A DNA stretch of 64,000 nt from an uncultured Candidatus Saccharibacteria bacterium (lineage in GTDB: Bacteria; Patescibacteriota; Minisyncoccia; Sungbacterales; HO2-52-23). This document shows positions 5,375 to 59,729 of the stretch, piece after piece (position 1 is the first letter of the stretch; every line of letters begins with the position of its first letter). The stretch lies in NCBI GenBank assembly GCA_964585475.1, contig CAZPDF010000003.1, positions 7,983 through 71,982 of the forward strand. Direction: 5' to 3'. The notes under the pieces are model-generated. The model made no database searches. It worked only from the letters and a program-made list of their open reading frames with translations, and was not told the origin of the DNA. The position numbers and the translations under genes were made by a program.

Positions 5375-7354
5375 GTGTTCATGTCAAAATTTAAACTCGT
5401 ATCAAACTTTAAACCCACCGGCGACCAGCCACAGGCAATCGAGAAGCTTGCGGCGAATTTACGTGCCGGCGTGGAGCACCAAACACTTCTGGGCGTAACG
5501 GGTAGCGGCAAAACGTTTACTGTGGCAAACGTAATTGAGCGGGTGCAGAAACCGACCCTCGTCATCTCTCACAACAAAACTCTGGCCGCCCAACTCTATC
5601 AGGAATTCAAAGAATTTTTTCCGGCGAGTGTGGTGCATTATTTTGTATCCTACTACGACTACTATCAGCCCGAGGCCTATATCCCGCAAAGCGACACCTA
5701 CATAGAAAAGGACGCCAAGATCAATGAAATGATTGATGCCCTGCGGCACGCCTCAACCGCGTCGTTGCTCACCCGCCGCGATGTTATTATCGTTGCCTCG
5801 GTATCTTGCATCTACGGTATCGGAAACCCAGAAGAATATCAAAAAACTTCTATCGAAATAAAACCCGGCGAGAAAATCTCGCAAAAAAGCCTTATACGGC
5901 AGCTAGTGCTGCTTCAGTACACAAGAAACCCCATTGATCCGCGCCAAGGACATTTCCGCACTCGAGAAAATGTCATAGAAATATATCTGCCGTCGGGAGA
6001 GAACAAAATCTCCATAGAGATTGCGTACGGGAGAATCGCAAATATAAACGAATCAAAAGCTAATTTTGGCGGATCGCGTATCGAGATCAGTAAATGCCGG
6101 ATTTATCCTGCGAAACACTTTGTAACTCCGCAGGAAAAACTGGGGCTCGCAATAGAAAATATAAAAAAGGAGCTTAAGGAGCGCCTGGCCGAACTTAAAA
6201 AACGGGGCAAGGTCCTTGAAGCCGCGCGCCTGAAACAGCGGACAGAGTTTGACCTTGAAATGCTCGATCACACGGGCTACGTCAATGGAATTGAGAACTA
6301 CTCGCGGCATCTCGATTTCCGGAAATCCGGCACTCCTCCCTTTACGCTTATGGATTACTTTCACCATGCGCACGGCGGTAGTTTCCTTACCGTAATTGAT
6401 GAGTCGCACGCAACAGTCCCCCAGATTCGCGGAATGTACAACGGAGACCGTGCTCGAAAAGAAGTACTTATCGAGTACGGATTCCGTCTCCCCTCCGCAC
6501 TCGATAACCGCCCCCTCAAGTTCGAGGAGTTCAATAAAAAAGTGGATCAAGTAATTTACGTTTCCGCGACTCCGGCGCCGTATGAGCTCGAGCGGTCAAA
6601 TGTCGGGAGTCAGATGTCAACTGTCGTCGAACAACTCGTCCGCCCGACAGGAATCCTTGATCCCCAAACAGAAATCCGGCCCACCAAAAACCAGATTAAA
6701 GACGTCATTAAAGAAATCAAAAACCGTGTTGCCAAAAAAGAGCGATCGCTGGTGATGGCGCTCACCAAACGCCTGGCCGAGGATATTGCGGAGTATCTTA
6801 CCGAGGCCGGAATCAAGGCCGAGTATCTGCATTCTGAAATCAAGACCCTTGAGCGCCCGGAGGTTTTGAAAAAATTAAGAACCGGCGAACATGACGTGGT
6901 CGTGGGAATAAATCTCCTCCGCGAGGGGCTCGATCTTCCGGAGGTTTCGTTTATTGCGATCCTCGACGCCGATAAGGAGGGATTTCTGCGAAACGAAACC
7001 ACGTTGCTTCAAATAATCGGCCGCGCTGCTCGCCATACCAACGGAAAAGTTATTCTTTACGCTGACGCGGTCACCGGCTCCATGAGGGCGGCTATCAAAG
7101 AGACCGATCGGCGCAGAAAAATCCAGGAAGAGTATAATCGCGAGCACCAGATAACTCCTAAGAAAATCGAGAAGGCGATCCGCGAGTCGTTGCTTGAAGA
7201 ACTTAAAAAGGAAGGTGAAGTTCCGCTACCGGAAGGGCCTATCAAAGAAATCGTGAAGTCGCTGGAGAAAGAAATGAAAAGGGCGGTACGCGAGCTAAAC
7301 TTCGAGCTTGCGGCGCGTATCCGCGATAGGATAAAACAATTGACATCGCGCTAG
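5375..7354 (+). CDS. uvrB: excinuclease ABC subunit B
   Basis: Walker A GVTGSGKTFT, UvrB helicase motifs and a C-terminal UVR motif (ELNFELAARIRDRI). Confidence 0.95.
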   Translation: MFMSKFKLVSNFKPTGDQPQAIEKLAANLRAGVEHQTLLGVTGSGKTFTVANVIERVQKPTLVISHNKTLAAQLYQEFKEFFPASVVHYFVSYYDYYQPEAYIPQSDTYIEKDAKINEMIDALRHASTASLLTRRDVIIVASVSCIYGIGNPEEYQKTSIEIKPGEKISQKSLIRQLVLLQYTRNPIDPRQGHFRTRENVIEIYLPSGENKISIEIAYGRIANINESKANFGGSRIEISKCRIYPAKHFVTPQEKLGLAIENIKKELKERLAELKKRGKVLEAARLKQRTEFDLEMLDHTGYVNGIENYSRHLDFRKSGTPPFTLMDYFHHAHGGSFLTVIDESHATVPQIRGMYNGDRARKEVLIEYGFRLPSALDNRPLKFEEFNKKVDQVIYVSATPAPYELERSNVGSQMSTVVEQLVRPTGILDPQTEIRPTKNQIKDVIKEIKNRVAKKERSLVMALTKRLAEDIAEYLTEAGIKAEYLHSEIKTLERPEVLKKLRTGEHDVVVGINLLREGLDLPEVSFIAILDADKEGFLRNETTLLQIIGRAARHTNGKVILYADAVTGSMRAAIKETDRRRKIQEEYNREHQITPKKIEKAIRESLLEELKKEGEVPLPEGPIKEIVKSLEKEMKRAVRELNFELAARIRDRIKQLTSR

Positions 7355-25698: not shown

Positions 25699-26802
25699 TT
25701 AGGACGCGCGTATGGGCATCACAACGTAAAGATACGATCCGCCGGATTTATTGCGCAGCATTGAGGGCGCGTTTTGAGAGTTAAGACCGAAGAATAGTTC
25801 CTCCTCGTCCAAAGCATTTAATCCGTCCAGTAAGAATCTGTGGTTAAAGCTCACGCTAATCCCTTTTCCGGTAACGGCGGCCGGGAGCTTGGTTTTGTAT
25901 TCTCCGATCTCTGTATTATTTGAGGCGATCTCGAGTACCCCTTTTTTTTCTTGAATAGTGAGCGCCACCTCTTGCATTTTGGAGGTAAAAATGCTTGAGG
26001 CGCGAATGGTATCAATCAGACCTTCCCGTTTTAGAAAACACGTGGTTTCGAAATTTTTGGGAACAATGGATGAGTACTCGGGAAAAACCCCATCAATAAG
26101 GCGGGAGATCACCCGCAGGCCCCCGGTTTGAAATTCCACTTGATTCTCCCCGAGTGAAATTTTTACGTCGTCGTCTCCGCCCAAAATTCTTGCAAGCTCG
26201 GTGCTCACGCGTTGCGGCAAGATAAACGAAAAATTGCCCCCTTCGTTATTTTTTAGAATCGGCGCTTGGTGCTCGGCTAGCCTGAAGGTGTCGGTTGCTG
26301 CCAGCTGCAGACTTTTCTCTGTAATTTTAAAATAGACGCCCGCTAGCTCCGGCTTGAACTCGGATAAAGATACAGCCGGAATTACCCTTTCCAAGCCCCT
26401 TTTTAATTGAAAACTCTCCATGGCACATGTGTTCTTTTTTTTTATTTTGGGGAGAAGCGGGAAATCTTCCGCGGAAATGCCGTTAATTCTTATATCTCGC
26501 GCCGGGGTTTTAACAAATAAGTTCCCTTGTTTTTCTTCGAGTTCGATTTTTTCCTCTCGTAATGACTGGAGGAGTGAACTTATGATCTTGGCCGGAACGC
26601 TAATCTGCCCTGGGCGAACCCCCTCTCCTGGAAGAATAACTTCCACTGCATACTCAAGGTTAGTTGCAATTATCTTCAACGAATTTTTTTCTACCTCCAG
26701 CAGCACATTTCCCAATATGGGAAGGGTGGCATTTTTCCCGGAAAATCTTTCGGCAATCATCACGGCCGGGGCCAAATTTTCCTTCATGCATGAAAATTTC
26801 AT
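25699..26802 (-). CDS. dnaN: DNA polymerase III beta sliding clamp
   Basis: Three-domain clamp pattern (MKFSCMKENL...ATDTFRLAEH...). Adjacent to dnaA. Confidence 0.9.
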   Translation of the reverse strand: MKFSCMKENLAPAVMIAERFSGKNATLPILGNVLLEVEKNSLKIIATNLEYAVEVILPGEGVRPGQISVPAKIISSLLQSLREEKIELEEKQGNLFVKTPARDIRINGISAEDFPLLPKIKKKNTCAMESFQLKRGLERVIPAVSLSEFKPELAGVYFKITEKSLQLAATDTFRLAEHQAPILKNNEGGNFSFILPQRVSTELARILGGDDDVKISLGENQVEFQTGGLRVISRLIDGVFPEYSSIVPKNFETTCFLKREGLIDTIRASSIFTSKMQEVALTIQEKKGVLEIASNNTEIGEYKTKLPAAVTGKGISVSFNHRFLLDGLNALDEEELFFGLNSQNAPSMLRNKSGGSYLYVVMPIRAS

Positions 26803-27022
26803 AATTTTACATGGGACCCCATTTTAACAACAATAATAATAAATTACGTTATATTTAAATTTATTGTTATTATTAGAGAAAGACAACCTGTGGATTCGAT
26901 GGATTTGTTAAGTAAGTAACACATTCTTGGCGCAAAAGCTGGCAGGTATATGTTGGGTAAACCCTGTGCGAAAAATAGAAAAGAGTAGGCGGCTCGCGAT
27001 ATCCCCTGGCCGCACCCACACT
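26803..27022. promoter_or_regulatory. candidate oriC (AT-rich unwinding element plus DnaA-box-like nonamers) between dnaN and dnaA
   Basis: AT-rich palindrome AACAATAATAATAAATT...AATTTATTGTTATTATT. TTATCCATA (8 of 9 identity to TTATCCACA) and TGTGGATTC nonamers. Confidence 0.45.
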
Positions 27023-28423
27023 TTATCCATAGTAAACCTTATCTCTAACCAAGCGGATTTCCTCCTCCAGTTCAGTGTTTATTTTCAGCAAATTAGCAAT
27101 TTTTTCACAGGAGTGGATGGCCGTTGTATGGTCACGGCCGCCGAATCTTTCGCCGATGGAAGGGTAAGAGCTCTTGAGTTCGTCGCGCATCAAGTACATC
27201 GCGATTTGCCGCGGCTTCACAATATCACGCCTCCTAGAATGACTGATGAGCTCCCGTTCTTCAATATCGTAAAATTCGGACACCGCCTTCAAAATTTTCT
27301 TAGCGGACGCAAACTTTTTGGCAACGGTTTGGTGATTCGAGAGAATTTTTTTTACGGCCTCCACGTCCACGGGGGCGGAGGAGAGTTTAGCCGCCATGAC
27401 CACGCGGTTTAAGGCCCCCTCTAGCTCCCGGATGTTGGTTTTAATCACCTCGGCAACATGTTCAAGCACCGCATCCGGAAGAGAAACGGACTTGGCGGAG
27501 GCCTTGGTCTTCAGTATGAGAAGTCGGGTTTCAAAGTCAGGAAGGCCGATGTCCGCAATCATGCCTCCCTCAAACCGCGAGCGGAGGCGTTCTTCGAGGG
27601 TGGGGATCGCGCTCGGCGGCCGATCGGACGAAATAACAATCTGCTTATTTTTTTCAAATAACGAATTGAAAGTATGGAAGAATTCTTCCTGCATCTTCTC
27701 GGTCCGGGCAATAAACTGGATATCGTCGATAATAAGGAGATCAACCCCGCGGTACTTTTCTTTGAGCCGGCCCATTTCCTGGTTTTTTAACGCATCCACG
27801 ATCTCGCCCATATACTTCTCTGAAGGAACATAGCGCACGCGTATCCCCGGAGTTTTCTTTAGAAGCTCGTTACCTATGGCTTGGATCAGGTGCGTTTTAC
27901 CAAGGCCGACCCCGCCGTATATGAAAAGAGGGTTATAACTTGTGCCTGTATTTTTTATGACCGATTGGGAGGCGGCGTGTGCCAGTTCGTTAAAGGAGCC
28001 GACTATGAAATTGTCAAAAGAATACCGGGGATTAAGGTTGGTCTCCGGGTCGACCAAAAGCTCCCTCATGGAGAGCTCGTCTCCCTCGGATGGCGGCAGG
28101 GGCCCCACGCGTTTCCGTTTGGCCAGACGGTCTTTTAACGCCACGGCCACGCCTGCGCCTTCAGGTTTGCCGATAACGTAGCTCACGTCCTTGATCTCGG
28201 AGGAGATTTCCCGCAGGGCGTGAAGAATTGTCTTGTGGTATTTATTCTGCAGCCATTCCCGGGCGAATCCATTCGGAACAAAAACGGTGGCGATCCCGCC
28301 GTCCACCTCCGTAATTCCTGTCTCCTGAAACCAGGTAAGAAAACTAGGACGCGAAATATTAAGTTCGATTTTTGCCAGAACGGCTTGCCAAAGTTCGGTC
28401 TTTTCCATAAGGATCAAAAACAC
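27023..28423 (-). CDS. dnaA: chromosomal replication initiator DnaA
   Basis: AAA+ Walker A GGVGLGKTHL. C-terminal DNA-binding domain. Confidence 0.95.
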   Translation of the reverse strand: MFLILMEKTELWQAVLAKIELNISRPSFLTWFQETGITEVDGGIATVFVPNGFAREWLQNKYHKTILHALREISSEIKDVSYVIGKPEGAGVAVALKDRLAKRKRVGPLPPSEGDELSMRELLVDPETNLNPRYSFDNFIVGSFNELAHAASQSVIKNTGTSYNPLFIYGGVGLGKTHLIQAIGNELLKKTPGIRVRYVPSEKYMGEIVDALKNQEMGRLKEKYRGVDLLIIDDIQFIARTEKMQEEFFHTFNSLFEKNKQIVISSDRPPSAIPTLEERLRSRFEGGMIADIGLPDFETRLLILKTKASAKSVSLPDAVLEHVAEVIKTNIRELEGALNRVVMAAKLSSAPVDVEAVKKILSNHQTVAKKFASAKKILKAVSEFYDIEERELISHSRRRDIVKPRQIAMYLMRDELKSSYPSIGERFGGRDHTTAIHSCEKIANLLKINTELEEEIRLVRDKVYYG

Positions 28424-28591
28424 GGTTGTTTAACGCACAAGGTCTATTATACAATATATTTGCAACCCGGCCCCTATGCAGATTTGTGGAAAGGGTGTTG
28501 ATGGCCTGTGAATAAAAAAAACGTTGACTGCCGGGCGAAACGTTGCATAAAAATTTGACTATAAAAACCCTTTATTGTATGTTTTGTTAAT

Positions 28592-28726
28592 ATGTCCGTT
28601 ACCTATCAGCCGTCGAAAATTAAGAGAAAGCGCGCCCACGGGTTCAGGAAGCGAATGAGGGGGTCGACCGGGCGCCGAGTGCTTGCGAGACGCCGAGCCA
28701 AAAAGCGGGAGAAACTTAGCCCATGA
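28592..28726 (+). CDS. rpmH: 50S ribosomal protein L34
   Basis: [44 protein letters not shown]. Stop overlaps the rnpA start (ATGA). Not in the supplied ORF track because it is under 60 aa. Confidence 0.85.
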
Positions 28727-29055
28727 AAAAGCTCTATCGGTTGCAGGGCCACCGTGAGTTTAGGGCGCTGCTTTCTCGCGGACGCAGAAGAGATGCCCCC
28801 CTATTTCGGATTATATTCAAGCAGAGCGACCTGGTTCATTCCCGATACGCCTTTGTTGCTTCGCGCGCAGTGGACAAAAGATCTGCAGCGCGCCACCGGC
28901 TCATTCGACGCGCCAGAGAATGGGCCAGGAAGCAGCCGAGCCGGGCGGCGAGCAAGTTCGACATAGCCATTTTTTTTAAGAAAGACGCGGCGCGGGCCCC
29001 GCGTAAAATATTTTATGAAGAACTCGACAAAACATTTTCCGAAATTACTCGCTGA
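28723..29055 (+). CDS. rnpA: ribonuclease P protein component
   Basis: Basic RnpA pattern in the conserved rpmH-rnpA position. Confidence 0.85.
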
Positions 29056-29296
29056 TCTTGCTGTATTTATTCTCCGTTTCTATCAAAAAACAATTTCGCC
29101 CGATCACGGAATTTTAGCCGGTGTTTGGGGAGGAGCACGGTGCCATTTTTTTCCTTCCTGCTCAGAATACGCGGTCGCCGCCATCCGTCAATATGGACTA
29201 ACATGCGGGTCTGTGGTGTCGCTTAAAAGAATTGCGCGCTGTCATCCGTGGAGTGCGGGAGGGTACGACCCCGTAGTCTTAAAACCGAAATCCTAA
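29015..29296 (+). CDS. yidD: membrane protein insertion efficiency factor YidD
   Basis: GGARCHFFPSCSEYA with the conserved cysteines. Lies between rnpA and yidC. Confidence 0.8.
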   Translation: MKNSTKHFPKLLADLAVFILRFYQKTISPDHGILAGVWGGARCHFFPSCSEYAVAAIRQYGLTCGSVVSLKRIARCHPWSAGGYDPVVLKPKS

Positions 29297-29320
29297 ACCC
29301 GAAATTCTAAACCGACCGTA

Positions 29321-29430
29321 GGTCGTCCTGAACGAAGTGAGGTCCCTAAGTCGCCGGAGGCGACCGGGATCCCGGCCGAAGGCCTAGGGAGAACTCGGGG
29401 CTCCTTCGTCGCTTCGCTCCTCAGGACGGC
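29321..29430. repeat. GTCATCCTGAGCG-family palindromic element (RPE-like), copy B, nested in a larger palindrome
   Basis: GTCGTCCTGAACGAAGTGAGG ... CCTTCGTCGCTTCGCTCCTCAGGACGGC. Flanked by inverted CCTAAA/TTTAGG tracts (29290-29475). Confidence 0.6.
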
Positions 29431-29477
29431 GTCCTAAGGGACGTCAGTTTAGGATCTAGTGCTTAGGATTTAGAATT

Positions 29478-30218
29478 TTGAATCCATTCAATTTTGTCTA
29501 CACAGAATTTCTATGGCGCCCGTTATTTAACGGGCTCGTTTGGCTCTATGCGGTTATTCCGCCGCACGATCTTGGCCTGGCCATTGTTATCCTAACGGTC
29601 CTGATTCGGGCTATCCTCACCCCCCTGCTTCTTCGTGCACAGAAATCACAGCGCGACTTTGCGCGCCTTCAGGGCGAGATCAAGCAGATCCAGGAAAAAT
29701 TTAAAGGGCATCGTGATGCTCAGGGAAAAGCAACAATGGAGCTTTACCAGCGTGAAAAGGTAAACCCCTTTTCGGGCTGTCTTATGGTACTTATTCAGGG
29801 CCTCGTGCTCTTTACTCTATTCCCGCTCTTTCGCCAGGCTCTGGACCCGGCCATGCTTGTCTTTCTTTACGCATTTGTGTCAAACCCCGGGCCGATGAAT
29901 ACCATAAGTTTCGGGGTTCTTGATCTTGCCCAAGCTAATCTATATTGGGGGGCGCTCGCGGCGGTAAGCCTCTATTTCCAAACCAAACTCGGCGCTCCGG
30001 CTCTTCCCGCCGCCTCCGGCCCGAACGATTTTTCCCGCATGCTGCAGAAGCAGATGCTCTACATGCTGCCGGTTATGATTTTCTTCTTTTCGATGAGTCT
30101 TCCCGTCGCCATCACGCTTTACTGGACAATTTTAAACATTCTTGGTATCGTGCAGGAGATCCTAGTACGCAAGTTCCAAATTCCAAGCGCCAAAGTACAA
30201 ACAAATTCCAAGACCTAA
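29478..30218 (+). CDS. yidC: membrane protein insertase YidC (short form)
   Basis: Five-transmembrane short YidC pattern. Follows yidD. Confidence 0.85.
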   Translation: MNPFNFVYTEFLWRPLFNGLVWLYAVIPPHDLGLAIVILTVLIRAILTPLLLRAQKSQRDFARLQGEIKQIQEKFKGHRDAQGKATMELYQREKVNPFSGCLMVLIQGLVLFTLFPLFRQALDPAMLVFLYAFVSNPGPMNTISFGVLDLAQANLYWGALAAVSLYFQTKLGAPALPAASGPNDFSRMLQKQMLYMLPVMIFFFSMSLPVAITLYWTILNILGIVQEILVRKFQIPSAKVQTNSKT

Positions 30219-30309
30219 GGCCTAAATTCCAGACACGTTTCGAAACCAGAGCGTTAGAATTTCGGTATTGTTTGTGATTTGGAATTTGTGATTCTGGATT
30301 TTAAGGAAG

Positions 30310-30765
30310 ATGGACCCGGAAATTATAAAAAACGAAATTAAGGAGGTGCTCGACAAAATGAGTTACGGCGAAGAGCTTGAAGCGATTGAGGCCCACCAAG
30401 GCACCACCAGCCGTTTTAGTGTGCGCGTCCGAGGAGAGGCCAATATGCTGATTGGCGAGCACGGAGCGAACCTCGCGGCCCTCGAGCATGTTTTGAAAAA
30501 AATAATTCAGAAAAAATACGGCGAGGGCCACAAATTTACTTTGGACATAAATGACTATCGCATGAAGCGGCTTGAGGACTTGAAGCAAGACGTAAAAGCG
30601 GCAGCGAAAGATGTAAGATTGTATCGAAAAGACGTTCCGCTGCGCGCCATGTCGTCCTTTGAGCGAAGGATTGTCCATCTTCTCCTTGCCGAATACCCCG
30701 ACATTACTACGGAATCAATCGGGCAGGAGCCGGAGCGCAGGGTGGTGATAAGGCCGTATCCATAA
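30310..30765 (+). CDS. jag: Jag/KhpB-like RNA-binding protein (KH + R3H)
   Basis: C-terminal R3H domain (FERRIVHLLLAEY). Conserved position after yidC. Confidence 0.7.
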   Translation: MDPEIIKNEIKEVLDKMSYGEELEAIEAHQGTTSRFSVRVRGEANMLIGEHGANLAALEHVLKKIIQKKYGEGHKFTLDINDYRMKRLEDLKQDVKAAAKDVRLYRKDVPLRAMSSFERRIVHLLLAEYPDITTESIGQEPERRVVIRPYP

Positions 30766-51659: not shown

Positions 51660-53849
51660 TTACCGTTGGTGGGGCCGCCCGGGTCTTCTGCCCCCGCGGG
51701 GCGCATAAGGCGTTCGTGCCCGTTCTTCCTGGCCGCGCGCTATCTCCTCTTCGCTGTAGCGTCCCGGTACGTCTTTTAGGGAAAGATTGATTCTCCCCTG
51801 CTCGTCAATGTTCCTTACTTTTACCGGCACAATATCTCCTATATTCACAATATCAGTTACTCTCTCCACGTGCCACGGCGCAAGCTCGGAGATATGGATA
51901 AGTCCGTCTTGCCTTGGCCCCACCTCTACCATTGCCCCGAAATCAAGTATGCGGCTAACCTTCCCCTCGAGAATCTCCCCGGGTTTTAGCTCCCGCGTAA
52001 CTTGCTTGATAAGGGACATCGCTTTTTTCATCCCGTTCTCGGTGGTGGAGGTAATGAAGACCGTTCCATCGTCTTCAATGTCAATTTGCGTTCCGGTCTG
52101 CGCAATAATATCGTTTATCACCTTTCCGCCGGGCCCGATGAGGGCCCCTATTTTTTCCGGATTGATTTTGAGAATATTTACTCTTGGTGCCCAAGGCGAG
52201 AGTTCGGGCCTGGGTTCTTTAATGACTTCCTGCATTCGGTCAAGGATCTCAAAGCGTGATCTTCTGGCTTGTTCCAACGTCGAGCGAAGCATTTCCGGCG
52301 TGATGCCCTCGATTTTTACGTCCATCTGCACGGCCGTGATGCCGTCGCGGGTCCCGGCCACTTTAAAATCCATATCGCCGTGGTGGTCTTCCGGCCCTTG
52401 AATGTCGGTGAGAACTTTGTAATCTCCCGTTTCATTTAACATAAGGCCCATGGCCGCACCTGCCGCCGGTTTCTTAAGTGGCACTCCCGCGTCCATCAAG
52501 GCCAGAGACGATCCGCATACGGACGCCATGGAGGTCGAGCCGTTCGAAGATAGGGCCTCGGAGACCACCCGAATAGTATAGGGGAAGTTTTCTTTAAGCG
52601 GGATCAAGGGAAGGAGCGCTCTTCCGGCCAGGGCCCCGTGCCCTATTTCTCTCCTGCCGGGGCCTCGCATGGGTTTCGTTTCTCCGGTTGAGAAGGGCGG
52701 GAAATTATAATGGTGCAGAAAGTGCTTTTTCGTGCGTATTTCCATCCCCTCTATGATTTGTTCATCCCCCGGAGCTCCGAGAGTGAGGGTGGAGAGAACA
52801 TGCGTCTCGCCCCGCATGAAAAGGCCGGATCCGTGAACTCGCGGAAGCATCCCCACGGCCACCCTAATTTCGCGAAGCTCGTCCGGTTTCCTTCCGTCCG
52901 GCCGCTCGCCCTTCCCGAGTATGCGCCGGTGCACGATTTCATTTATTTCCTCCTCAAAGAGAAAATCGGCGGCTGATTTTTGGAATTTTTCCGGGTGGAG
53001 TTCCTTGGCACGCATGACCCACTCCTCCCGCACGACCATCTCCGCATGCTTCATTGTCTTCTTCCCTTTTTGGTAGAGCGCTTCCTCAATGCGCGAGGAA
53101 AACTCCTTTTTAATGAGTGTGCGAAGTTCTTCCGGAGCTTCAAGTAGCGGAACCGGTGACTTTTGTCTCGGATTTTCGGCGATAATACGTTCTTGGAATC
53201 CGATAAATTCTTGCACGAATTTGTATCCCCACTCAACGGAGACAGCAAAATCTTCCTCCGAAATTTCGTTTGCGCCGGCTTCTATCATGTTTATCCGCTC
53301 TCGGGTTCCGGAGACAATGACATCCAGATCCCCCCTTTGCCGCTCCTCGTGGGTTGGGTTTAAAAGAAATTTTCCTTCTATTCTTCCAACGCGTACTCCT
53401 GCAATCGGGCCTTGCCAGGGAATGTCGGAGAGGGAAAGCGCCAGGGACGAAGCCAGAAGTGCTACGATATCCGGATCGTTCTCGTCATCCACCGAGAGAA
53501 TAGTAAGAACTAACTGCACCTCGTTTCTCATGCGCATGTCGAATCTGGGGCGGAGGGAGCGATCAATAAGCCGTGCGGCCAGAGTCGCCTCCTCCGAGGG
53601 CCTGGTTTCGCGTTTGACGAAGCGGGAGCCAAGAATTTTGCCCGTGGCGTAAAATTTCTCTTCGTACTCTACGGTAAGCGGGAAAAAATCGCCGCCCTCC
53701 CGCGGGGTTTTATTCATGACGGCGGTGGCGAGTACCATCGTATCTCCCAGACGCACCAAAACCGAGCCGTTGGCTTGTTCGGCCCAGTTATTGAGCTCTA
53801 TTAAAAAATTTTTCCCCCCTAACGAGTGCGAATACGTTTTAGTATCCAC
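51660..53849 (-). CDS. pnp: polynucleotide phosphorylase
   Basis: Two RNase PH domains, KH and S1 domains (GKVSRILDFGAMVEV). Arg-rich C-terminal tail. Confidence 0.95.
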   Translation of the reverse strand: MDTKTYSHSLGGKNFLIELNNWAEQANGSVLVRLGDTMVLATAVMNKTPREGGDFFPLTVEYEEKFYATGKILGSRFVKRETRPSEEATLAARLIDRSLRPRFDMRMRNEVQLVLTILSVDDENDPDIVALLASSLALSLSDIPWQGPIAGVRVGRIEGKFLLNPTHEERQRGDLDVIVSGTRERINMIEAGANEISEEDFAVSVEWGYKFVQEFIGFQERIIAENPRQKSPVPLLEAPEELRTLIKKEFSSRIEEALYQKGKKTMKHAEMVVREEWVMRAKELHPEKFQKSAADFLFEEEINEIVHRRILGKGERPDGRKPDELREIRVAVGMLPRVHGSGLFMRGETHVLSTLTLGAPGDEQIIEGMEIRTKKHFLHHYNFPPFSTGETKPMRGPGRREIGHGALAGRALLPLIPLKENFPYTIRVVSEALSSNGSTSMASVCGSSLALMDAGVPLKKPAAGAAMGLMLNETGDYKVLTDIQGPEDHHGDMDFKVAGTRDGITAVQMDVKIEGITPEMLRSTLEQARRSRFEILDRMQEVIKEPRPELSPWAPRVNILKINPEKIGALIGPGGKVINDIIAQTGTQIDIEDDGTVFITSTTENGMKKAMSLIKQVTRELKPGEILEGKVSRILDFGAMVEVGPRQDGLIHISELAPWHVERVTDIVNIGDIVPVKVRNIDEQGRINLSLKDVPGRYSEEEIARGQEERARTPYAPRGGRRPGRPHQR

Positions 53850-53894
53850 CTATCTTTTGGCGTTGGGATCGCGGAAGAAGAGAGCAATCGATAC

Positions 53895-54035
53895 GAGATC
53901 ATTCATCCAGCCCTCTTAGCTGTACGTAATTTATTCTGCCCCTAAGTACGCCTTAATATAATTATCTGGATAAATTATATCTCGGCGGCTTAGAGGGCTG
54001 GATGAATGATGTATCGCGTTTTAATTCCTTCTCTT
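53895..54035. promoter_or_regulatory. long hairpin in the pnp 5' leader (20-bp perfect inverted repeat)
   Basis: CATTCATCCAGCCCTCTTAGC ... GCTTAGAGGGCTGGATGAATG, arms about 75 nt apart. Immediately upstream of the pnp start. Confidence 0.45.
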
Positions 54036-54082
54036 TCTTCGCACTTCTCCCCACGCAATTTACATGTTAGATATCACATAAT

Positions 54083-54652
54083 TTACCTAATCCTCATAAG
54101 AAATTTTCTTTGGTCGGCTCCAAGATCTGTAAATTCGTCGGTTGATTCCTGAAGTTTTTGCGACGCCGACCTCGCAAATGCCATGACTTCTACCCGTACG
54201 CCGTTTGCTTTGAGGTATTCAACCAGCGGCACGAAGTCGCCGTCCCCGGTGATAAGGACTATGGCGTCAATAAAGGTTCCGGCGAGGCGAACCGCATCAA
54301 TGGCCATGCCCACATCCCAGTCCGCTTTCTTCATGCCCCCGGGGAAAATCTGCAGATCCTTGATGCGCGTCTCAATCCCCATTTTAGTCAGCGCTTCAAG
54401 AAACGGTTTCTCCTCTCCGGATTCGGTGCGAATGACATAGGCAAAAGCGCGGACAAGTTCCCTTCCCTCCACCGCAAAGCGCAATACCTCCTTGAAATTT
54501 ACGCGCGCGCCGTAAAGATTCTTGGCCGAGTGGTACAGATTCTGCACGTCAATGAATACGGCAACGCGCTGGGCTTTGTGTTTTAATATGTTCACTTCGT
54601 TCACGAAATCGCCAATCAGTCTTGAATTAATTCGCGAATAGATAATTCGCAA
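54083..54652 (-). CDS. NYN-domain (LabA-like) protein
   Basis: VAVFIDVQNLYHSAKNLYG ... IVLITGDGDFVPLVEYLKANG is the NYN/LabA pattern. Located between rpsO and pnp. Confidence 0.6.
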   Translation of the reverse strand: MRIIYSRINSRLIGDFVNEVNILKHKAQRVAVFIDVQNLYHSAKNLYGARVNFKEVLRFAVEGRELVRAFAYVIRTESGEEKPFLEALTKMGIETRIKDLQIFPGGMKKADWDVGMAIDAVRLAGTFIDAIVLITGDGDFVPLVEYLKANGVRVEVMAFARSASQKLQESTDEFTDLGADQRKFLMRIR

Positions 54653-54663
54653 GGGACTAGAGA

Positions 54664-54933
54664 TTACCTTTTCAACCCTAGTTTCTTTATAACGCTATTA
54701 TATTTTCTGATATTCGACTCCTTGAGATAGTCCAGAAACTTTTTTCTCCGCGCGACCATTCCCAAAAGCCCCCGGCGCGAGTGGTGGTCTTTTGGGTGGG
54801 TTTTCAAGTGTCCAGTCAGGCGGACGATCTCTTCTGTGAGCACGGCAATTTGCACCTCGCTGGATCCCGTGTCTTTATCATGGGCCCTGAATTTTTCAAT
54901 GATTTTTGATTTTTCTTTTTGGGCCAGAGCCAT
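54664..54933 (-). CDS. rpsO: 30S ribosomal protein S15
   Basis: [36 protein letters not shown]... is canonical S15. Confidence 0.9.
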
Positions 54934-55031
54934 ACTTTATGACTCTATCACGCCCCTGGTCTTTTTGCAATACCTTCACGACGCCGCTGTAATCTGATAT
55001 TTTAAAGAGAGTTCTTGTTGGAGAGAATATT

Positions 55032-56036
55032 ATGAAATCACGCGCTCTTGTATTAAGAGAGCTTATTGCCCGTCCGCAGGGCGTTTCGGTGCCCGGCATA
55101 ACCGTTCCCCTGGATGCGTATATAGCAGAGCTTATCGGCCTTTTGGCGGGATATGGCGGTGGATTCGCTCAAGCCGGCCAAGACGGGAAACCTGACCGTG
55201 GATTCATCTCTCGAGATGGTATGATCGGGCGCGCAAGAAGAATTGTTTCCGCCACTTCCCTTCCCATACTTTTCGACATTGACGACGGATACGGAGACGC
55301 CCTGATTGCGCGTGATACCGTTCGGGAACTTCTTGAAACCGTGCCCAATCTTGCGGCTTTTCATATCGAAGACCAGCGGTTTCCCAAGCGATGCGGACAT
55401 ATAGCCGGAAAGGACGTTTTGCCTCTGGACGAATTTCTGGGCAAACTTGATGCGGTCTTGGACATGCGAGAGAAACTGGGCAGGAAAGATGTCAGTGTAG
55501 TTGCCAGAACAGACGCCTTTAGCGCGGCCTCCGGAAAGAAGGACAAGAAGCTCGGCGGGGATATCCGTGAAGTCGTAAAAAGACTTTGCGCATATAAAAA
55601 ACTTGGAGCGGATGTGGGATGGGCTGAGACGCCCGACCCTCGCTATAAAGTTGCGGAAGAAATCGCGCTTAGAGTACGCGATAAATTTCCCGACTTTCCG
55701 CTGGCTTATAATGTTTCGCCTTCGTTCTCGCATGAGGATTGGGAGCGGTGGGCGGATGAGACCTCTGACGAGCGATTAAACGATTTGGGCTACAAACTCC
55801 GATTTATTACCTACTTTTCTTTGGTGGTGCAGGTCTGGGCAGTGGAGAGCTTTATGCGGGTGTTTAAGGACCTCGGCGCTACGCGGACTCTCCGCGAGAT
55901 TAAACGCATAGTTAAAGGGACCCTGGCTGAGAATATAATGAAATTGGTAGGAGTTCCGGAGGCCCTTGAACTTGAACGGCGTTTTATTCCGGGATCCGGC
56001 AAAAAACAGAAACACTCGGAGGGCTTCGGGGCGTAG
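55032..56036 (+). CDS. isocitrate lyase / PEP mutase superfamily enzyme (methylisocitrate lyase / PEP mutase-like)
   Basis: FDIDDGYGD and the K-R-C-G-H signature (FPKRCGHIAGK). Confidence 0.65.
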   Translation: MKSRALVLRELIARPQGVSVPGITVPLDAYIAELIGLLAGYGGGFAQAGQDGKPDRGFISRDGMIGRARRIVSATSLPILFDIDDGYGDALIARDTVRELLETVPNLAAFHIEDQRFPKRCGHIAGKDVLPLDEFLGKLDAVLDMREKLGRKDVSVVARTDAFSAASGKKDKKLGGDIREVVKRLCAYKKLGADVGWAETPDPRYKVAEEIALRVRDKFPDFPLAYNVSPSFSHEDWERWADETSDERLNDLGYKLRFITYFSLVVQVWAVESFMRVFKDLGATRTLREIKRIVKGTLAENIMKLVGVPEALELERRFIPGSGKKQKHSEGFGA

Positions 56037-56039
56037 ATA

Positions 56040-56068
56040 CGAAAACGACGGCCTCGCCGTCGTTTTTT
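56040..56068. terminator. bidirectional intrinsic terminator
   Basis: AAAACGACGGCCTCGCCGTCGTTTT. Confidence 0.6.
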
Positions 56069-56269
56069 AAATTCCGCCCGGCAGGATTCCGTCGCTCCGC
56101 TCCTAGAACCCGTCGCACTCGCTCAACCCGGTGGACTCGCTCGCGCTCCTTGAAACCTTGCGGTTTCAATACTTCCACTGCGGGAAAACTCCCGTTTTCC
56201 CGACCCCTTTCCCAGGTTCTCATCCTGCCGGAAGTTAAATTTCAAACCCGCTTTCAGTGGGTTTAAAAT

Positions 56270-56575
56270 TTTACAATCCGCCCGGCAGGATTCGAACCCC
56301 GCACAGCAGCAAGACTGTATGCGGGGCAGGCCTGCGATTAACTCGACTGCGGCATTTACCCCGTACTAAATTTATCCGGTTCGTCCCCCGAGACTCGAAC
56401 TCGGAACCGCCGCCTTAAGAGGGAGCTGCTCTACCAATTGAGCTAGGGGCGGACACAGAATCGGGACTCTACCGCTGAGCTATGCGCGGGTTTTGAAATT
56501 TTTCGCGCCCATCAGGACTCGAACCCCAAACCTCTTGGTCCGAAGCCAAGCGCTCTGTCTTCACCCTCCCACCTT
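56270..56575 (-). other. tRNA-like units of uncertain integrity (possible Lys-CTT-like unit, truncated Arg-like duplicate, 5' partial units)
   Basis: GGATTCGAACC / GGACTCGAACC T-loop complements and canonical D-arms (TAGCTCAATTGGTAGAGC) are present. The acceptor and anticodon stems of these units do not pair cleanly when folded by eye. Confidence 0.3.
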
Positions 56576-56578
56576 TCT

Positions 56579-56652
56579 CGTCCCTGCGAGGACTCGAACC
56601 CCGAACCTCTTGCTTCGAAGGCAAGCGCTCTGTCCAGTTGAGCTACAGGGAC
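56579..56652 (-). tRNA. tRNA-Arg (anticodon TCG)
   Basis: Minus-strand fold: GTCCCTG/CAGGGAC acceptor, GCTC/GAGC D-stem, CTTGC-CTTCGAA-GCAAG anticodon arm, CGGGG-TTCGAGT-CCTCG T-arm. Confidence 0.7.
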
Positions 56653-56708
56653 AAAGGTGGGAGGGCAAGTCGAGCTATGGGCGCATCGAAGAAAAAATAT
56701 CATAAAAG

Positions 56709-56736
56709 TTGAAAAATATCAAGTTTTTGATATAAT
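56709..56736 (+). promoter_or_regulatory. sigma70-like promoter upstream of cca
   Basis: TTGAAA, a 16-nt spacer, then TATAAT, ending 8 nt before the ATG. Confidence 0.45.
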
Positions 56737-56743
56737 AACAGCG

Positions 56744-58213
56744 ATGGCCCAAAAAACTTCTATTCCAGATGCAGTTAAAGAGGTGGTTGAAAAACTGCAA
56801 AATGCCGGATTTGAGGCCTATATTGTCGGTGGCTGCGTACGGGATTTGCTGCGTGGAGAAAAACCCAAGGACTGGGATGTCACGACTTCGGCGCATCCGG
56901 AGGAGATTATAAAAATCTTTCCGGAGAGTTTTTATGAGAATAAGTTTTTGACGGTAACGGTAAAGACGGGGTCGGAGGACCAGACGCTTCGCGAAATCGA
57001 AATAACGACGTTTCGCGCCGAGGGGAAATATACGGACAAACGACACCCGGACGAGATAAGATTTGCCAAAACGCTCGAGGAGGATTTGTCCCGCCGTGAT
57101 TTTACGATTAACGCAATGGCGATGGATGCGGAGGACAATTCAACCGACCCTTTTGAAGGACAAGCGGATTTGAAGAAAAAAATTGTCCGCGCGGTAGGAG
57201 AGCCGGAGAAACGTTTTGATGAAGATGCCCTGCGGATGATGCGGGGTGTGCGCCTCGCGACCGAATTAAATTTTACTATAGAGGAAGAGACGGAGCGCGC
57301 GATTAAGAAATTGGCCGGCAACCTTCAATTTATCGCCAAAGAGCGAATCCGCGACGAGCTAGTTAAAATTATCGGAACTCCCCACGCGCGGGAAGGTATT
57401 GAGCTGCTCCACGAACTCGGACTCCTCAAATTTATAATTCCCGAACTTGAAGAAGGAATCGGAGTTGAGAATCGTCCAAGGGTTTTTACCATTTGGGAGC
57501 ACAACTTAAAAGCGTTGGAATACGGGGCAAAGACCAAATTCCCGCTTGATGTTAAGATCGCGGCCATGCTCCATGATGCTGGGAAGCCCCGCACCAAAGG
57601 CCCCATGAAAAATAACGAGTGGACTTTTTATGGGCACGATGTTGTGGGAAGCCGAATGGCGGCAGCCCTTCTCTTGCGGCTGCATTTTCCGCGGGAAACC
57701 GTAGAAAAAATATCAACGCTCATTCGCTGGCACCTTTTCAAGTACGACCCCGATGAGGGCATTACCGATTCTTCGATCCGCCGCCTGATCCGCAGAGTCG
57801 CGCCGGAAAATATGGATGATCTGGTCAAGCTTCGTATCTGCGACCGCATGGGCATGGGGGTTCCCAAGGCCGTTCCCTACCGACTGCGACACTTCCAATT
57901 CCGGGTTGAGAAAATTTTGCGGGAAGAAGAGACGCCGACACCAAAAATGCTCAAAGTGAACGGCGACGATATTATGAAAACTTTGGGAATCGAGCCGGGA
58001 CCGAAAGTCGGACATGTTCTTGAGGTGTTGCTACAAGAAGTAATTGATGAGCCCGTAAAGAATAGCCGTGAAAGTTTAGAATCGAGAATCAAGAATTTGG
58101 GGAAGCTCGAGGATAAGGAGCTCGTGAAGCTTGCCGAAGATGCCGAATCGAAAGTGGAAATGGTAGAAGATGAGCGAGTTTCGAAAATAAAGCAAAAGTA
58201 TTGGGTTAAATGA
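56744..58213 (+). CDS. cca: CCA-adding tRNA nucleotidyltransferase with HD domain
   Basis: AYIVGGCVRDLLRGEKPKDWDV Pol-beta nucleotidyltransferase motif and a downstream HD domain (MLHDAGK). Confidence 0.8.
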   Translation: MAQKTSIPDAVKEVVEKLQNAGFEAYIVGGCVRDLLRGEKPKDWDVTTSAHPEEIIKIFPESFYENKFLTVTVKTGSEDQTLREIEITTFRAEGKYTDKRHPDEIRFAKTLEEDLSRRDFTINAMAMDAEDNSTDPFEGQADLKKKIVRAVGEPEKRFDEDALRMMRGVRLATELNFTIEEETERAIKKLAGNLQFIAKERIRDELVKIIGTPHAREGIELLHELGLLKFIIPELEEGIGVENRPRVFTIWEHNLKALEYGAKTKFPLDVKIAAMLHDAGKPRTKGPMKNNEWTFYGHDVVGSRMAAALLLRLHFPRETVEKISTLIRWHLFKYDPDEGITDSSIRRLIRRVAPENMDDLVKLRICDRMGMGVPKAVPYRLRHFQFRVEKILREEETPTPKMLKVNGDDIMKTLGIEPGPKVGHVLEVLLQEVIDEPVKNSRESLESRIKNLGKLEDKELVKLAEDAESKVEMVEDERVSKIKQKYWVK

Positions 58214-59390: not shown

Positions 59391-59452
59391 CTTAAGCTAG
59401 TATATATAATAGTATTTGCGAGTCAATTGTTGCGAGAGATCAGTCTTTATGC

Positions 59453-59485
59453 GGGCCGTAGTATAGTGGTAGTACGCGGGGCTCT
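59453..59485 (+). pseudogene. truncated tRNA-Pro-like 5' fragment
   Basis: CGGGCCGTAGTATAGTGGTAGTACGCGGGG parallels the 5' half of the adjacent tRNA-Pro, but the anticodon loop is collapsed to 4 nt and there is no T-arm. Confidence 0.3.
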
Positions 59486-59500
59486 CCCCGTTAGAAATAT

Positions 59501-59571
59501 CGGGCCATAGTGTAGCGGTAGCACGAGTCCTTCGGGAGGATTTAGCCCCGGTTCGAATCCGGGTGGCCCGA
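59501..59571 (+). tRNA. tRNA-Pro (anticodon CGG)
   Basis: CGGGCCA/TGGCCCG acceptor, AGTCC-TTCGGGA-GGATT anticodon arm with G37, CCCGG-TTCGAAT-CCGGG T-arm. Flanked by perfect 13-bp inverted repeats TCCCCGTTAGAAAT / ATTTCTAACGGGG. Confidence 0.75.
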
Positions 59572-59729
59572 GGAAAAATTTCTAACGGGGCAAGGGACTC
59601 CGTAGACTGGGGCGAAAAGATCGATGATCTTTTCGCGGGCCGACCACCAAGTTAAGTGAGCTTTGCGAGCGTTTTATGAAGGTCGGCCCGGGAATTTGCG
59701 AGGAGCAAATTGATTCCCAGCGGCCCGAA

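Follow-up and report, generated by a model that had tools for sequence, protein, structure and literature searches.

The 64-kb stretch of contig CAZPDF010000003.1 that was analysed here (hereafter, the window) carries on its minus strand a cluster of tRNA genes and tRNA-like pieces, in which an intact tRNA-Arg(TCG) gene lies within a broken tRNA-Arg(TCG) gene and is followed by a broken tRNA-Lys gene that holds a second Lys copy and a duplicated tRNA 3′ end. The window was compared with related genome and metagenome contigs, labelled L001-L143. In the flagged region, ARAGORN and Rfam called only two tRNAs on the minus strand, Arg(TCG) and Lys(CTT), and the remaining units were not folded as intact tRNAs. 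This agrees with a preliminary description of the locus, in which Arg(TCG) had been the only clean fold on that strand; no mismatched pair was present at 56652-56579. The whole window contains four tRNA genes by ARAGORN, and CCA is encoded by none of them (0/4).

Nested tRNA genes in the window

The Arg nest consists of the following features.

56669-56684, minus strand: 5′ piece of the outer tRNA-Arg(TCG), GCGCCCATAGCTCGAC, with acceptor GCGCCCA, TA, D-stem GCTC and D-loop start GAC (fold and join test)
56653-56668, minus strand: left shell half, TTG and the 13-nt arm CCCTCCCACCTTT (arm at 56665-56653), single copy in the window
56579-56652, minus strand: inner intact tRNA-Arg(TCG), acceptor GTCCCTG/CAGGGAC, the cargo of the cassette (ARAGORN; Rfam, 67.9 bits)
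56558-56576, minus strand: right shell half, arm AAAGGTGGGAGGG (56576-56564) and TGAAGA, forming a 13-bp helix with 56665-56653
56504-56557, minus strand: 3′ piece of the outer tRNA-Arg(TCG), with D-stem 3′ strand, anticodon arm, T-arm and acceptor TGGGCGC (alignment and fold)

The cassette is a unit of 111 nt in the order TTG, arm CCCTCCCACCTTT, complete Arg(TCG), AG, arm AAAGGTGGGAGGG and TGAAGA, and it is positioned in the D-loop of the resident Arg gene, the G18-G19 region of which it replaces. The arms are a perfect inverted repeat (13/13). The inner Arg gene, which exceeded the Rfam threshold of 29 bits by far and had a full cloverleaf with zero non-canonical pairs, is presumed from its sequence to be the functional gene of the nest; it is 89% identical to the cargo of L089 and differs from that of L009 by two compensated acceptor pairs. 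The outer 3′ piece (56557-56504) showed 82% identity to the intact Arg gene over 61 nt, with one G-G mismatch in its T-arm. The preliminary description had reported it as a near-identical Arg unit without a 5′ acceptor and D-stem. These parts are indeed absent locally, but they exist upstream of the intact gene, at 56684-56669, and the outer Arg gene is therefore interrupted, not truncated.

When the outer pieces were joined in silico, ARAGORN recognized tRNA-Arg(TCG) in 35 of the 36 join variants, with G18-G19 absent and one T-stem mismatch, and the joined gene was 89% identical to the uninterrupted Arg gene of L143. Furthermore, the uninterrupted Arg gene of L002 has the acceptor GCGCCCA/TGGGCGC, which is that of the outer copy in the window. 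Because the outer copy thus matches the uninterrupted Arg genes of relatives, the outer gene is taken to be ancestral and the inner gene to be inserted DNA. In the minimum free energy (MFE) fold of the whole unit, which had a z-score of -5.65, the outer acceptor is paired (56684-56677 with 56512-56505), as are the outer D-stem, including 56555-56552, and the 13-bp arms, with the inner acceptor stem stacked on the arms.

Two further features delimit the region.

56694-56722, minus strand: Sigma-70-like promoter TTGATA-17-TATTTT, the sole minus-strand promoter match in 55900-56900
56043-56067, either strand: bidirectional intrinsic-terminator hairpin AAAACGACGGC GAG GCCGTCGTTTT, which ends the tRNA unit and the convergent isocitrate-lyase (ICL)-family gene

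The flagged region is most simply one transcription unit of ~650 nt, beginning with the promoter (56722-56694) and ending with the terminator (close to 56050), since the only minus-strand promoter lies upstream of the outer Arg 5′ piece and the terminator lies past the second copy of the 16-mer described below. The same promoter block is also present ahead of the Arg gene in L002, L143 and L009, and the terminator gave an sroD-like terminator alignment in the Rfam search.

Downstream of the Arg nest, the Lys genes are arranged as follows.

56467-56489, minus strand: 5′ piece of the outer tRNA-Lys, CCGCGCATAGCTCAGCGGTAGAG (CCGCGCA TA GCTC AGCGGTA GAG), broken after the D-arm
56453-56466, minus strand: TCCCGA TTCTGTG T, left flank of the Lys cassette, which in the window genome has lost its right counterpart
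56380-56452, minus strand: inner tRNA-Lys(CTT), decaying (ARAGORN; Rfam, 44.7 bits)
56297-56379, minus strand: wreck of the resident Lys 3′ half (homologous segment, L001 2815-2690; compared with the intact Lys gene of L010)

The preliminary description had recognized both a 5′ partial unit, which is CCGCGCATAGCTCAGCGGTAGAG at 56489-56467, and a Lys-CTT-like unit with poor acceptor and anticodon stems, each of which was indeed found to contain two non-canonical pairs. Compared with the cargo of L001 and L009, the inner Lys gene has four substitutions, all of which are in stems and break pairs, and the cloverleaf is not its best fold (-24.5 versus an MFE of -28.0 kcal/mol; the values for L001 are -30.4 and -30.2). 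In the resident 3′ half, the 3′ strand of the anticodon arm is deleted, the T-stem 5′ strand GCAGG is retained at 56335-56331, and a 34-nt hairpin (56330-56297, CCTG CCCCGCA..TGCGGGG) is inserted ahead of the T-loop. The outer Lys gene cannot be rebuilt by joining, its anticodon arm being deleted.

The break point GAG/TCCCGA of the outer Lys gene is the same in the window, L001, L009 and L117. The cassette in the window, L001 and L009 follows the pattern GAG/TCCCGA, TGCTGnn, Lys(CTT) with the acceptor CCGTCCC/GGGACGG, nnCAGCA and TCGAGGATCCTCGA, and it sits after the D-arm of three different types of resident Lys gene; its flanking helix covaries, being TGCTGTG/CACAGCA in L001 and TGCTGAA/TTCAGCA in L009. 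The same Lys-type shell holds a non-tRNA cargo in L117. Since E. coli manages with tRNA-Lys(UUU) as its only tRNA-Lys, Lys(CTT) may be dispensable, and by this analogy it is plausible that both Lys copies decayed in the window because a tRNA-Lys(UUU) encoded elsewhere in the genome reads AAG.

The window contains another nest, which is made of tRNA-Pro.

59452-59590, plus strand: second window nest, tRNA-Pro (Rfam; inverted-repeat arms)
59452-59485, plus strand: 5′ piece of the outer tRNA-Pro
59486-59498 and 59578-59590, plus strand: arms CCCCGTTAGAAAT and ATTTCTAACGGGG (13 bp)
59501-59571, plus strand: intact inner tRNA-Pro(CGG), in the anticodon loop of the outer Pro gene

The arms CCCCGTTAGAAAT/ATTTCTAACGGGG recur in L002 on either side of Ala(CGC) and in L025 on either side of Pro(CGG). 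One CCCCGTTAG shell is present in the window. Downstream of the Pro nest (to 59700), there are also hairpins, CGAAAAGATCGATGATCTTTTCG, and a 10-bp inverted repeat, CGGGCCGACC..GGTCGGCCCG.

Cassette shells and empty sites in relatives

A metagenome scan for AAAGGTGGGRGGGTGAARA returned 56 stretches, many of which were chance matches. The following have the full palindrome of the Arg cassette with the same asymmetric ends (hereafter, the CCCTCCC shell).

L085, L089: Arg(TCG) cargo, in the D-loops of two further Arg gene types
L103/L109/L118, L105/L088, L132: Arg(TCT) cargo, in D-loops
L104: Met(CAT) cargo in a reversed shell, in an anticodon loop, with several nesting levels
L101: Glu(TTC) cargo, in an anticodon loop
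L124: complete 5S rRNA, within a broken 5S gene
L117, L121: ~70 nt of non-RNA cargo in the same shell

An identical shell surrounds Arg(TCG) of three acceptor types, and the left half is identical in L009, L089, L103, L117 and L132. The shell occurs in both orientations and was found in the D-loops of four Arg gene types, in Met and Glu anticodon loops and in one 5S gene. The entry point in the D-loop is constant (..(C)AAC/TTG..TGAAGA/TAGAGC), with the G18-G19 region replaced. In every nest with an RNA cargo that was examined, the inner and outer copies were of the same RNA kind. The same right arm also follows a Lys gene in L035, where it abuts a displaced Lys 3′ end. The shell motifs had no match in 2.9 million viral contigs (IMG/VR), and a viral origin was rejected on this ground.

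Such recurrence bears on the explanation that the nests are an assembly or binning artefact, that is, a chimeric join of the tRNA alleles of different strains. The window does come from a metagenome-assembled genome, and repeat-like tRNA genes can be misassembled. However, the same architecture appears with lineage-specific substitutions in the products of independent projects and assemblers (the window, L009, L085, L089, L103/L109/L118, L105 and L132), and we give an artefact practically no weight.

Empty and filled sites were found among the relatives. Plain adjacent Arg and Lys genes are present in L002, L012, L021 and L022, the pair in L002 being behind the same promoter block as in the window, and L009 contains the same Arg nest as the window, with identical arms, TTG and TGAAGA. 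The site is empty in L143, which has an uninterrupted Arg gene of 73 nt, and filled in L009, which has a composite of 183 nt, with flanks that are 94-97% identical (145/150 upstream and 141/150 downstream). The ends of the L009 composite (positions 1-13, and the T-loop to the 3′ end) are identical to L143, whereas 10 of the 36 positions of its outer segment, which spans the D-loop to the T-stem 5′ strand, are different, compared with a flank divergence of 3-6%. Because these differences far exceed the flank divergence, the outer middle segment was probably imported along with the cassette. The simplest reading of the L009 nest, as judged from these comparisons, would be an allelic replacement via homologous recombination from a donor that was already nested, with crossovers that would fall in the conserved TAGCTC and GGTTCGAATCC blocks. 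Such a replacement would also explain the single T-stem mismatches of the outer copies, the two strands of which would be of different origin. An insertion polymorphism, which the preliminary description had led us to expect, is thus present for the D-loop cassette (L143 empty, L009 filled) and also for the T-loop element described below (L024 empty, L026 filled).

It could be argued from the L009 allele that there is no mobile element, and that the nests arose by local duplication, gene conversion and template switching at the D and T boxes and at hairpins, and then spread by homologous recombination. The break points do fall at TAGCTC and GGTTCGAATCC, the blocks that are best conserved in tRNAs, the L009 allele resembles an allelic replacement with crossovers in those same blocks, and RuvABC, PolA and UvrD are encoded in the window. 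Local duplication cannot, however, yield the distribution of the shell, because identical arms and TTG/TGAAGA ends recur around different RNA kinds, being present in many contigs, in either orientation, with 5S rRNA and four tRNA isoacceptors as well as with non-RNA cargo. Moreover, a second arm family, CCCCGTTAGAAAT, is common to the Pro and Ala nests (the window, L002 and L025), and L117 has a further inverted-repeat element with a TCAAC direct repeat. An origin by local rearrangement is, in our judgment, unlikely.

To describe flanking repeats independently of any motif, we used loci fetched through the CCA enzyme as the survey set. Exact flanking inverted repeats of at least 10 nt were found for 14 of 149 tRNAs, whereas shuffled flanks gave a mean of 0.1 and a maximum of 1. 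Ten further cases, of Ala, Pro and Val, were all (10/10) nested in remnants of the same isoacceptor. The arm families besides CCCTCCC are 12-17 nt in length, and three nesting levels were seen in L046 and L103. The inserts of L024 and L011 are placed precisely between positions 37 and 38, nothing having been duplicated or lost, and their helix begins 2 nt past the 5′ junction and stops 1 nt short of the 3′ junction. Altogether, same-isoacceptor nests are those of Arg(TCG), Lys(CTT) and Pro in the window and of Ala, Val, Met, Glu and Arg(TCT) in relatives.

The insertion positions are of relevance to another explanation, namely that the outer genes are still functional disrupted tRNAs, from which the insert is cut by RNase P, RNase Z or RNase III and the halves are ligated or act as a two-piece tRNA. 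It would be in keeping with the ARAGORN-valid joined outer Arg pieces, with the fully paired outer acceptor, in which A7-T66 in the window is compensated relative to G7-C66 in L009, with the insertions being in loops, several of them at 37/38, the canonical archaeal/eukaryotic intron position, and with the abundance of intervening sequences in the rRNA genes of the candidate phyla radiation (CPR) (PMC11270868). However, bulge-helix-bulge junctions were rejected, because the 13-bp helix of the arms is uninterrupted, and neither a second bulge nor a 3-nt bulge on the 3′ strand is present. The insert also replaces the G18-G19 region, which is needed for the tRNA elbow; the outer copies gather stem mismatches, deletions and hairpin inserts, even within the anticodon (L085, between C35 and G36); and the outer Lys gene of the window is without half its anticodon arm. 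The compensated 7-66 pair is equally explained by independent alleles, as L143 and L002 carry both types intact, and an intact inner copy with the same anticodon makes the outer copy redundant. Continued function of the outer genes is, as a whole, very unlikely. Permuted or two-piece tmRNA was likewise rejected, none being detected by ARAGORN.

Several contigs with the shell had additional features. In L124 (20-770), the complete 5S gene has its own flanking inverted repeat of ~19 bp behind a reversed CCCTCCCACCTTT arm, and the host 5S gene is broken at CCCAT/TCCGAAC. In L121 (190-290), a shell variant, CCCCCCCACCTTT..AAAGGTGGGGGGG, with ~65 nt of AT-rich cargo lies inside the open reading frame (ORF) of PNPase on the opposite strand, and the frame stays open; this is possibly a protein gene with an in-frame insertion. 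In L117 (1-700, minus strand), the resident Arg gene was struck by a second inverted-repeat element, CCACGTACAAG..CTTGTACGTGG, with a TCAAC direct repeat; the CCCTCCC shell with non-tRNA cargo comes directly after this TCAAC-flanked element, and a working Arg gene is situated further downstream in the wreck.

Small hairpins are also scattered over the nests. A double-hairpin mini-insert of ~30 nt, TCAGCCnGAGGCTGA TCCGCCnnnGGCGGA AAG, occurs in L001 (~3310-3280, in the anticodon loop of the outer Lys gene), L103 (~6560-6590 and ~6750-6780) and L124 (~670-700). A second small family, CCTGCC(TG)CC..GGCAGG, is present in L085 (between anticodon bases 35 and 36), L103, L117 and the window (56330-56297), and a third, with GTCGTATGAC-type loops, in L001 and L104.

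The duplicated 16-mer and T-loop elements

The end of the resident Lys gene comprises the following features.

56277-56296, minus strand: T-loop TTC and repeat copy 1 (GAATCCTGCCGGGCGG A), with the T-loop 3′ half and the T-stem and acceptor 3′ strands (repeat search)
56090-56276, minus strand: interior of the T-loop element, designated E (no ORF, no Rfam match)
56073-56089, minus strand: repeat copy 2, probably the native 3′ end of the resident Lys gene, in displaced position (by analogy with L026/L024)

The 16-mer GAATCCTGCCGGGCGG has exactly two copies in the window, at 56293-56278 and 56089-56074, which are 204 nt apart; the preliminary description was right about the duplication and its spacing, its upper-end coordinates being 2 nt off. 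The repeat is 17 nt long with the discriminator and extends to 25 nt at 92% identity. With up to 2 mismatches allowed, 0.08 occurrences are expected, and the observed count was reached in 0 of 100 shuffles. A near-match with 2 mismatches, GATTCCTGTCGGGCGG, lies in the uvrB ORF (6640-6655, minus strand) and is probably due to chance, having no tRNA-like context. In the interior of E, a 13-bp hairpin lies at 56271-56237 and is followed by a T-arm copy in inverted orientation, CCGGCAGGATGAGAACC (56231-56215); further contents are a GC-rich structured domain and, at 56142-56107, two 18-mers in tandem.

At eight tRNAs, the 3′ end is present a second time, the second copy starting exactly at T-loop position 57 and the spacing being 85-204 nt.

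Window: Lys remnant, 204 nt
L001: Arg, 141 nt
L017: Arg, 142 nt
L026: Arg, 151 nt
L031: Arg, 125 nt
L021: Ala, 85 nt
L029: Pro, 181 nt
L029: Ser, 163 nt

The boundary of these elements is sharp, between T-loop positions 56 and 57, and the duplication is 17-34 nt long. A common architecture was found in 7 of the 8: copy 1 is followed by a strong hairpin, then by the T-loop and T-stem 3′ strand in inverted copy, a GC-rich domain and copy 2. The inverted copy matches the T-loop and T-stem 3′ strand of its own tRNA (the window version is CCGGCAGGATGAGAA), with a central GA/GA mismatch common to four instances, and the GC-rich domain has the motifs GAA-R-GCCG-N-AGCG and ACCGCRAGG. In the shortest element, that of the L021 Ala gene, the inverted copy is not clear (best match, 8/15). 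An nhmmer profile of the GC-rich domain found only the training copies and one weak match near tRNA-Glu in L098/L100, and Rfam had no family for the shell or for E (E<=10 in the window region; E<=0.5 in seven related loci). The inverted T-arm copies beside hairpins resemble the extension of a quasi-palindrome by template switching, which is a further point in favor of the local rearrangement considered above.

In L024, the site of the L026 element is empty, and the native downstream flank there shares 85% identity with the 150 nt that come after copy 2 in L026. In addition, the repeat continues 3 nt into the native trailer in L026 and further in L021 and the window. Since the native flank follows copy 2 and the repeat enters the trailer, copy 2 is taken to be the displaced native end and the repeat to be an apparent target duplication.

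In the preliminary description, the duplicated 3′ end was read as an att site. The part of this proposal that stands is that the duplication starts in the T-loop; the part that does not is the integrated element, as only 204 bp are enclosed, with no ORF and no integrase, and nested tRNAs are not predicted. A fuller form of the proposal is that tyrosine-integrase elements integrated into the tRNA genes, left the repeats as attL/attR footprints and later lost nearly all of their DNA by deletion, and that the fragments are debris of repeated integration and excision. The anticodon loop and the T-loop are reportedly sub-locations used by integrases (Williams, 2002), the duplicated segment runs from the T-loop to the tRNA 3′ end as in classical T-loop att sites, and the insertion polymorphism is of the kind expected. 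A XerC/D-like tyrosine recombinase gene (Phage_integrase and SAM_1) is also present in L132 (345-1307, minus strand), ending ~60 nt from the nested tRNA-Arg(TCT); it is the sole recombinase seen beside any nest. On the other hand, the bounded segments are 85-204 bp with no ORF, and the 56 ORFs scanned across the window gave no Pfam match to Phage_integrase or to any other integrase or transposase family (cut-off, E<=1e-5), nor to an HUH enzyme, a splicing endonuclease or RtcB. The architecture and the sharp 56/57 boundary are shared by independent tRNAs, at which random deletion remnants would vary, and the repeat enters a lineage-specific trailer (L026, L021 and the window), which indicates target duplication and not a tRNA mimic borne by an element. 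Complete tRNAs in D-loops between conserved 13-bp palindromes are not predicted by this proposal, and the shell motifs are unmatched in the 2.9 million viral contigs. We thus find att-site remnants improbable as the source of the locus.

Other routes of insertion were compared by inspection. Integron-like recombination was rejected, because the D-arm GCTCAAC fits RYYYAAC but the cassette start TTGCCC fails TTRRRY. A TnpB/omega-RNA-like nature of E, with a scaffold and a 16-nt 3′ guide, was set aside, because copy 1 beside the T-loop TTC would target itself. The targets of IS91-type rolling-circle elements are GTTC and CTTG. Insertion of this type is no more than a lead: GTTC/ is found at the T-loop site, and CTTG or CTTA always precedes the shell, whereas the empty sites lack CTTG and an HUH gene was not detected in the window. 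A folded single-strand att site for Xer recombinases, like that of CTX phage, is a second lead, which is suggested by the stem of copy 1 and its inverted copy with the central GA/GA mismatch and by the Xer-like gene beside the L132 nest.

Proposed mechanism, known systems and gene neighborhood

Resident tRNA genes and one 5S gene were entered by small inserts that are bounded by palindromes and have no protein gene. The entry points are D-, anticodon- and T-loops and, for the Lys cassette, the 3′ edge of the D-stem. The locus is thus a record of repeated insertion into tRNA genes, as the preliminary description had proposed, in view of the nests, the T-loop element and the empty and filled sites of relatives. 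We consider it probable that small cassettes free of protein genes entered tRNA loops and persist by carrying or restoring the gene that they break. As judged from sequence, the function would be supplied by the insert either as a whole replacement gene, in the case of the D-loop and anticodon-loop cassettes, or as a duplicated 3′ end, in the case of the T-loop elements. Outer copies display mismatches, deletions and secondary hairpin inserts as signs of decay, and the compensatory acceptor changes of the inner Arg gene and the covarying Lys flanks suggest that the cargo is under selection while the outer copies are decaying.

According to this proposal, an ancestral pair of tRNA-Arg(TCG) and tRNA-Lys(CTT) genes would have been broken by small cassettes. 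The inner Arg gene, being without a promoter, would be read from the resident promoter, and the 13-bp arm helix under its acceptor stem may shield the inner tRNA from mispairing with the outer halves and serve as a processing handle, after which RNase P and RNase Z would release the inner tRNA. A second cassette type would have broken the resident Lys gene likewise, and a third element type would then have entered the Lys T-loop at 56/57 and duplicated the 3′ end, leaving the two 16-mers. The cassettes could be non-autonomous mobile DNA. Genomes of this small size probably have one copy of each tRNA gene, in which case an insertion would survive only if it brought a working copy, and such survivorship could be the reason that the cargo is the same isoacceptor as the target. 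At least some of the spread may be due to homologous recombination, in which the outer gene pieces would act as homology arms. As for the chemistry of insertion, the targeting of loops and the hairpin-forming ends suggest, as a lead only, an activity on folded single-stranded DNA.

Several observations weigh against this proposal. The outer Arg gene retains 7/7 acceptor, 5/5 anticodon-stem and 4/5 T-stem pairs, and its acceptor differs from that of L009 by a compensated pair, so that the outer copy may keep some role. A clear target-site duplication around the CCCTCCC shell was not found, there being a possible TG only, and a mobilizing enzyme was not identified in the window. The window holds a single CCCTCCC shell, and multi-copy behavior per genome was not seen there. 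Furthermore, the isoacceptor match between a generic shell and its target has only survivorship as its explanation.

A broader possibility, which we put forward tentatively and regard as rather doubtful, is that the CPR contains an unrecognized class of structure-targeted mobile DNA, that is, miniature palindromic break-and-rescue cassettes that enter exposed loops of essential structured-RNA genes (tRNA and 5S rRNA) and bring an intact version of what they destroy, with T-loop members that carry a guide-like inverted target copy. If so, such cassettes could not be lost, the halves of the broken gene would serve as homing arms, and the inverted target copy in T-loop members would imply nucleic-acid-guided site choice.

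The closest functional analogue is the tRNA-dependent lysogeny of actinobacteriophages, in which the prophage breaks a host tRNA gene and carries a tRNA whose isotype is the same (Guerrero-Bustamante & Hatfull, 2024, PMC10865867). In both, an essential host tRNA is broken by the insert and is not rebuilt, and a same-isotype tRNA is brought. The phage system, however, involves a 40-60-kb prophage, a tyrosine integrase, a common core of ~10 bp and a separately placed phage tRNA gene (PMC10865867), whereas the cassettes here are ~110 nt without a protein gene, and the replacement tRNA is the insert itself, bounded by palindromes and apparently using the promoter of the broken gene. Classical tRNA att sites share with the T-loop elements a direct repeat of the tRNA 3′ part from the T-loop, with a functional gene at one junction and the displaced end at the other; the differences are the length of 85-204 bp, the lack of an integrase gene, the constant 56/57 boundary, the inverted T-arm copy and the extension of the repeat into the trailer.

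The disrupted tRNA genes of archaea and the Caldiarchaeum model (Sugahara, 2012, PMC3293823) are similar in having D-, anticodon- and T-loop interruptions, several at 37/38, and tRNA fragments beside a newer copy, for which a mobile element was proposed. They differ in that the host here is bacterial, there is no bulge-helix-bulge, the interrupted copy is apparently abandoned and the insert contains a complete tRNA with the same anticodon. Miniature inverted-repeat transposable elements (MITEs) and paired repetitive extragenic palindromes (REPINs) also are ~100-125 bp and non-coding, with perfect terminal inverted repeats, and form several families in both orientations and varied contexts. The present cassettes differ in their cargo, which is predicted to be a functional RNA gene matching the target, in their targets, which are structured-RNA loops, and in that no clear target-site duplication was seen and no cognate transposase was identified in the window. 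The intervening sequences of rRNA genes, including those of CPR (Tsurumaki et al, 2024, PMC11270868), are extended helices in structured-RNA loops of the same bacterial group, but they are excised and the rRNA is functional in pieces, whereas the host gene here is apparently replaced by the cargo. tRNA goes unmentioned in that CPR rRNA survey, according to which no 5S rRNA gene has an insertion of 100 bp or more (PMC11270868). Full-text literature searches, in which the arm sequences were included, found no description of tRNA-in-tRNA nesting in bacteria. The pattern could be a variant of known tRNA-targeting, self-complementing insertions and of miniature palindromic elements, and it has a real chance of representing a new class.

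If the proposed reading holds, these cassettes are selfish DNA that persists in single-copy essential RNA genes by replacement and not by splicing out, and they may drive an unusually fast turnover of tRNA acceptor stems among these genomes. With respect to annotation, tRNA finders report the inner copy only and miss the outer fragments and the precursors flanked by inverted repeats. The tRNA "pseudogenes" and "fragments" of CPR bins may therefore be systematic and not noise, which could also apply to 5S rRNA surveys. The conserved 13-bp leader-trailer helices predict a specific step of precursor processing in bacteria that are not yet culturable alone, and the cassettes could act as compact, promoter-less modules for tRNA delivery.

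The window comes from a tiny groundwater bacterium, which is a Sungbacteria-like member of the CPR/Patescibacteria. The neighborhood of the nests is largely conserved. The CCA-adding enzyme gene (56744-58213, plus strand) has homologues of 70-81% identity in Candidatus Sungbacteria; a look-up of the exact protein gave no match, although a cluster representative identical to it exists. The gene order common to relatives is PNPase, NYN, S15, a variable slot, tRNA Lys and Arg, CCA enzyme, tRNA-Pro and tRNA-Ala. The slot between S15 and the tRNAs holds an ICL/PEP-mutase gene in the window (55032-56036, plus strand), for which the assignment to the isocitrate-lyase family in the preliminary description is borne out by matches of the ORF to the ICL and PEP_mutase families; it holds a ClpP gene in L001, a PhoU-like gene in L004 and a gene for a protein of 167 aa of unknown nature in L002. 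The nests are surrounded by an RNA-processing cluster (51660-58213) of PNPase, an NYN-domain nuclease (54083-54652), S15, the tRNAs and the CCA-adding enzyme, and the NYN-PNPase pair adjoins nests in L121 and L132 as well. By Pfam, the window also encodes RNase P protein, RuvABC, PolA, UvrB, UvrD, a dnaA-dnaN region and an NYN-domain protein. The neighborhood of a replication origin, with dnaN, dnaA, rnpA, yidC and R3H/Jag, is found at 25699-30765, and a type-IV-secretion-like cluster (TraG/VirB4-like P-loop, PrgI and T4SS pilin) with a PD-(D/E)XK_3 protein is located at 32-41 kb.

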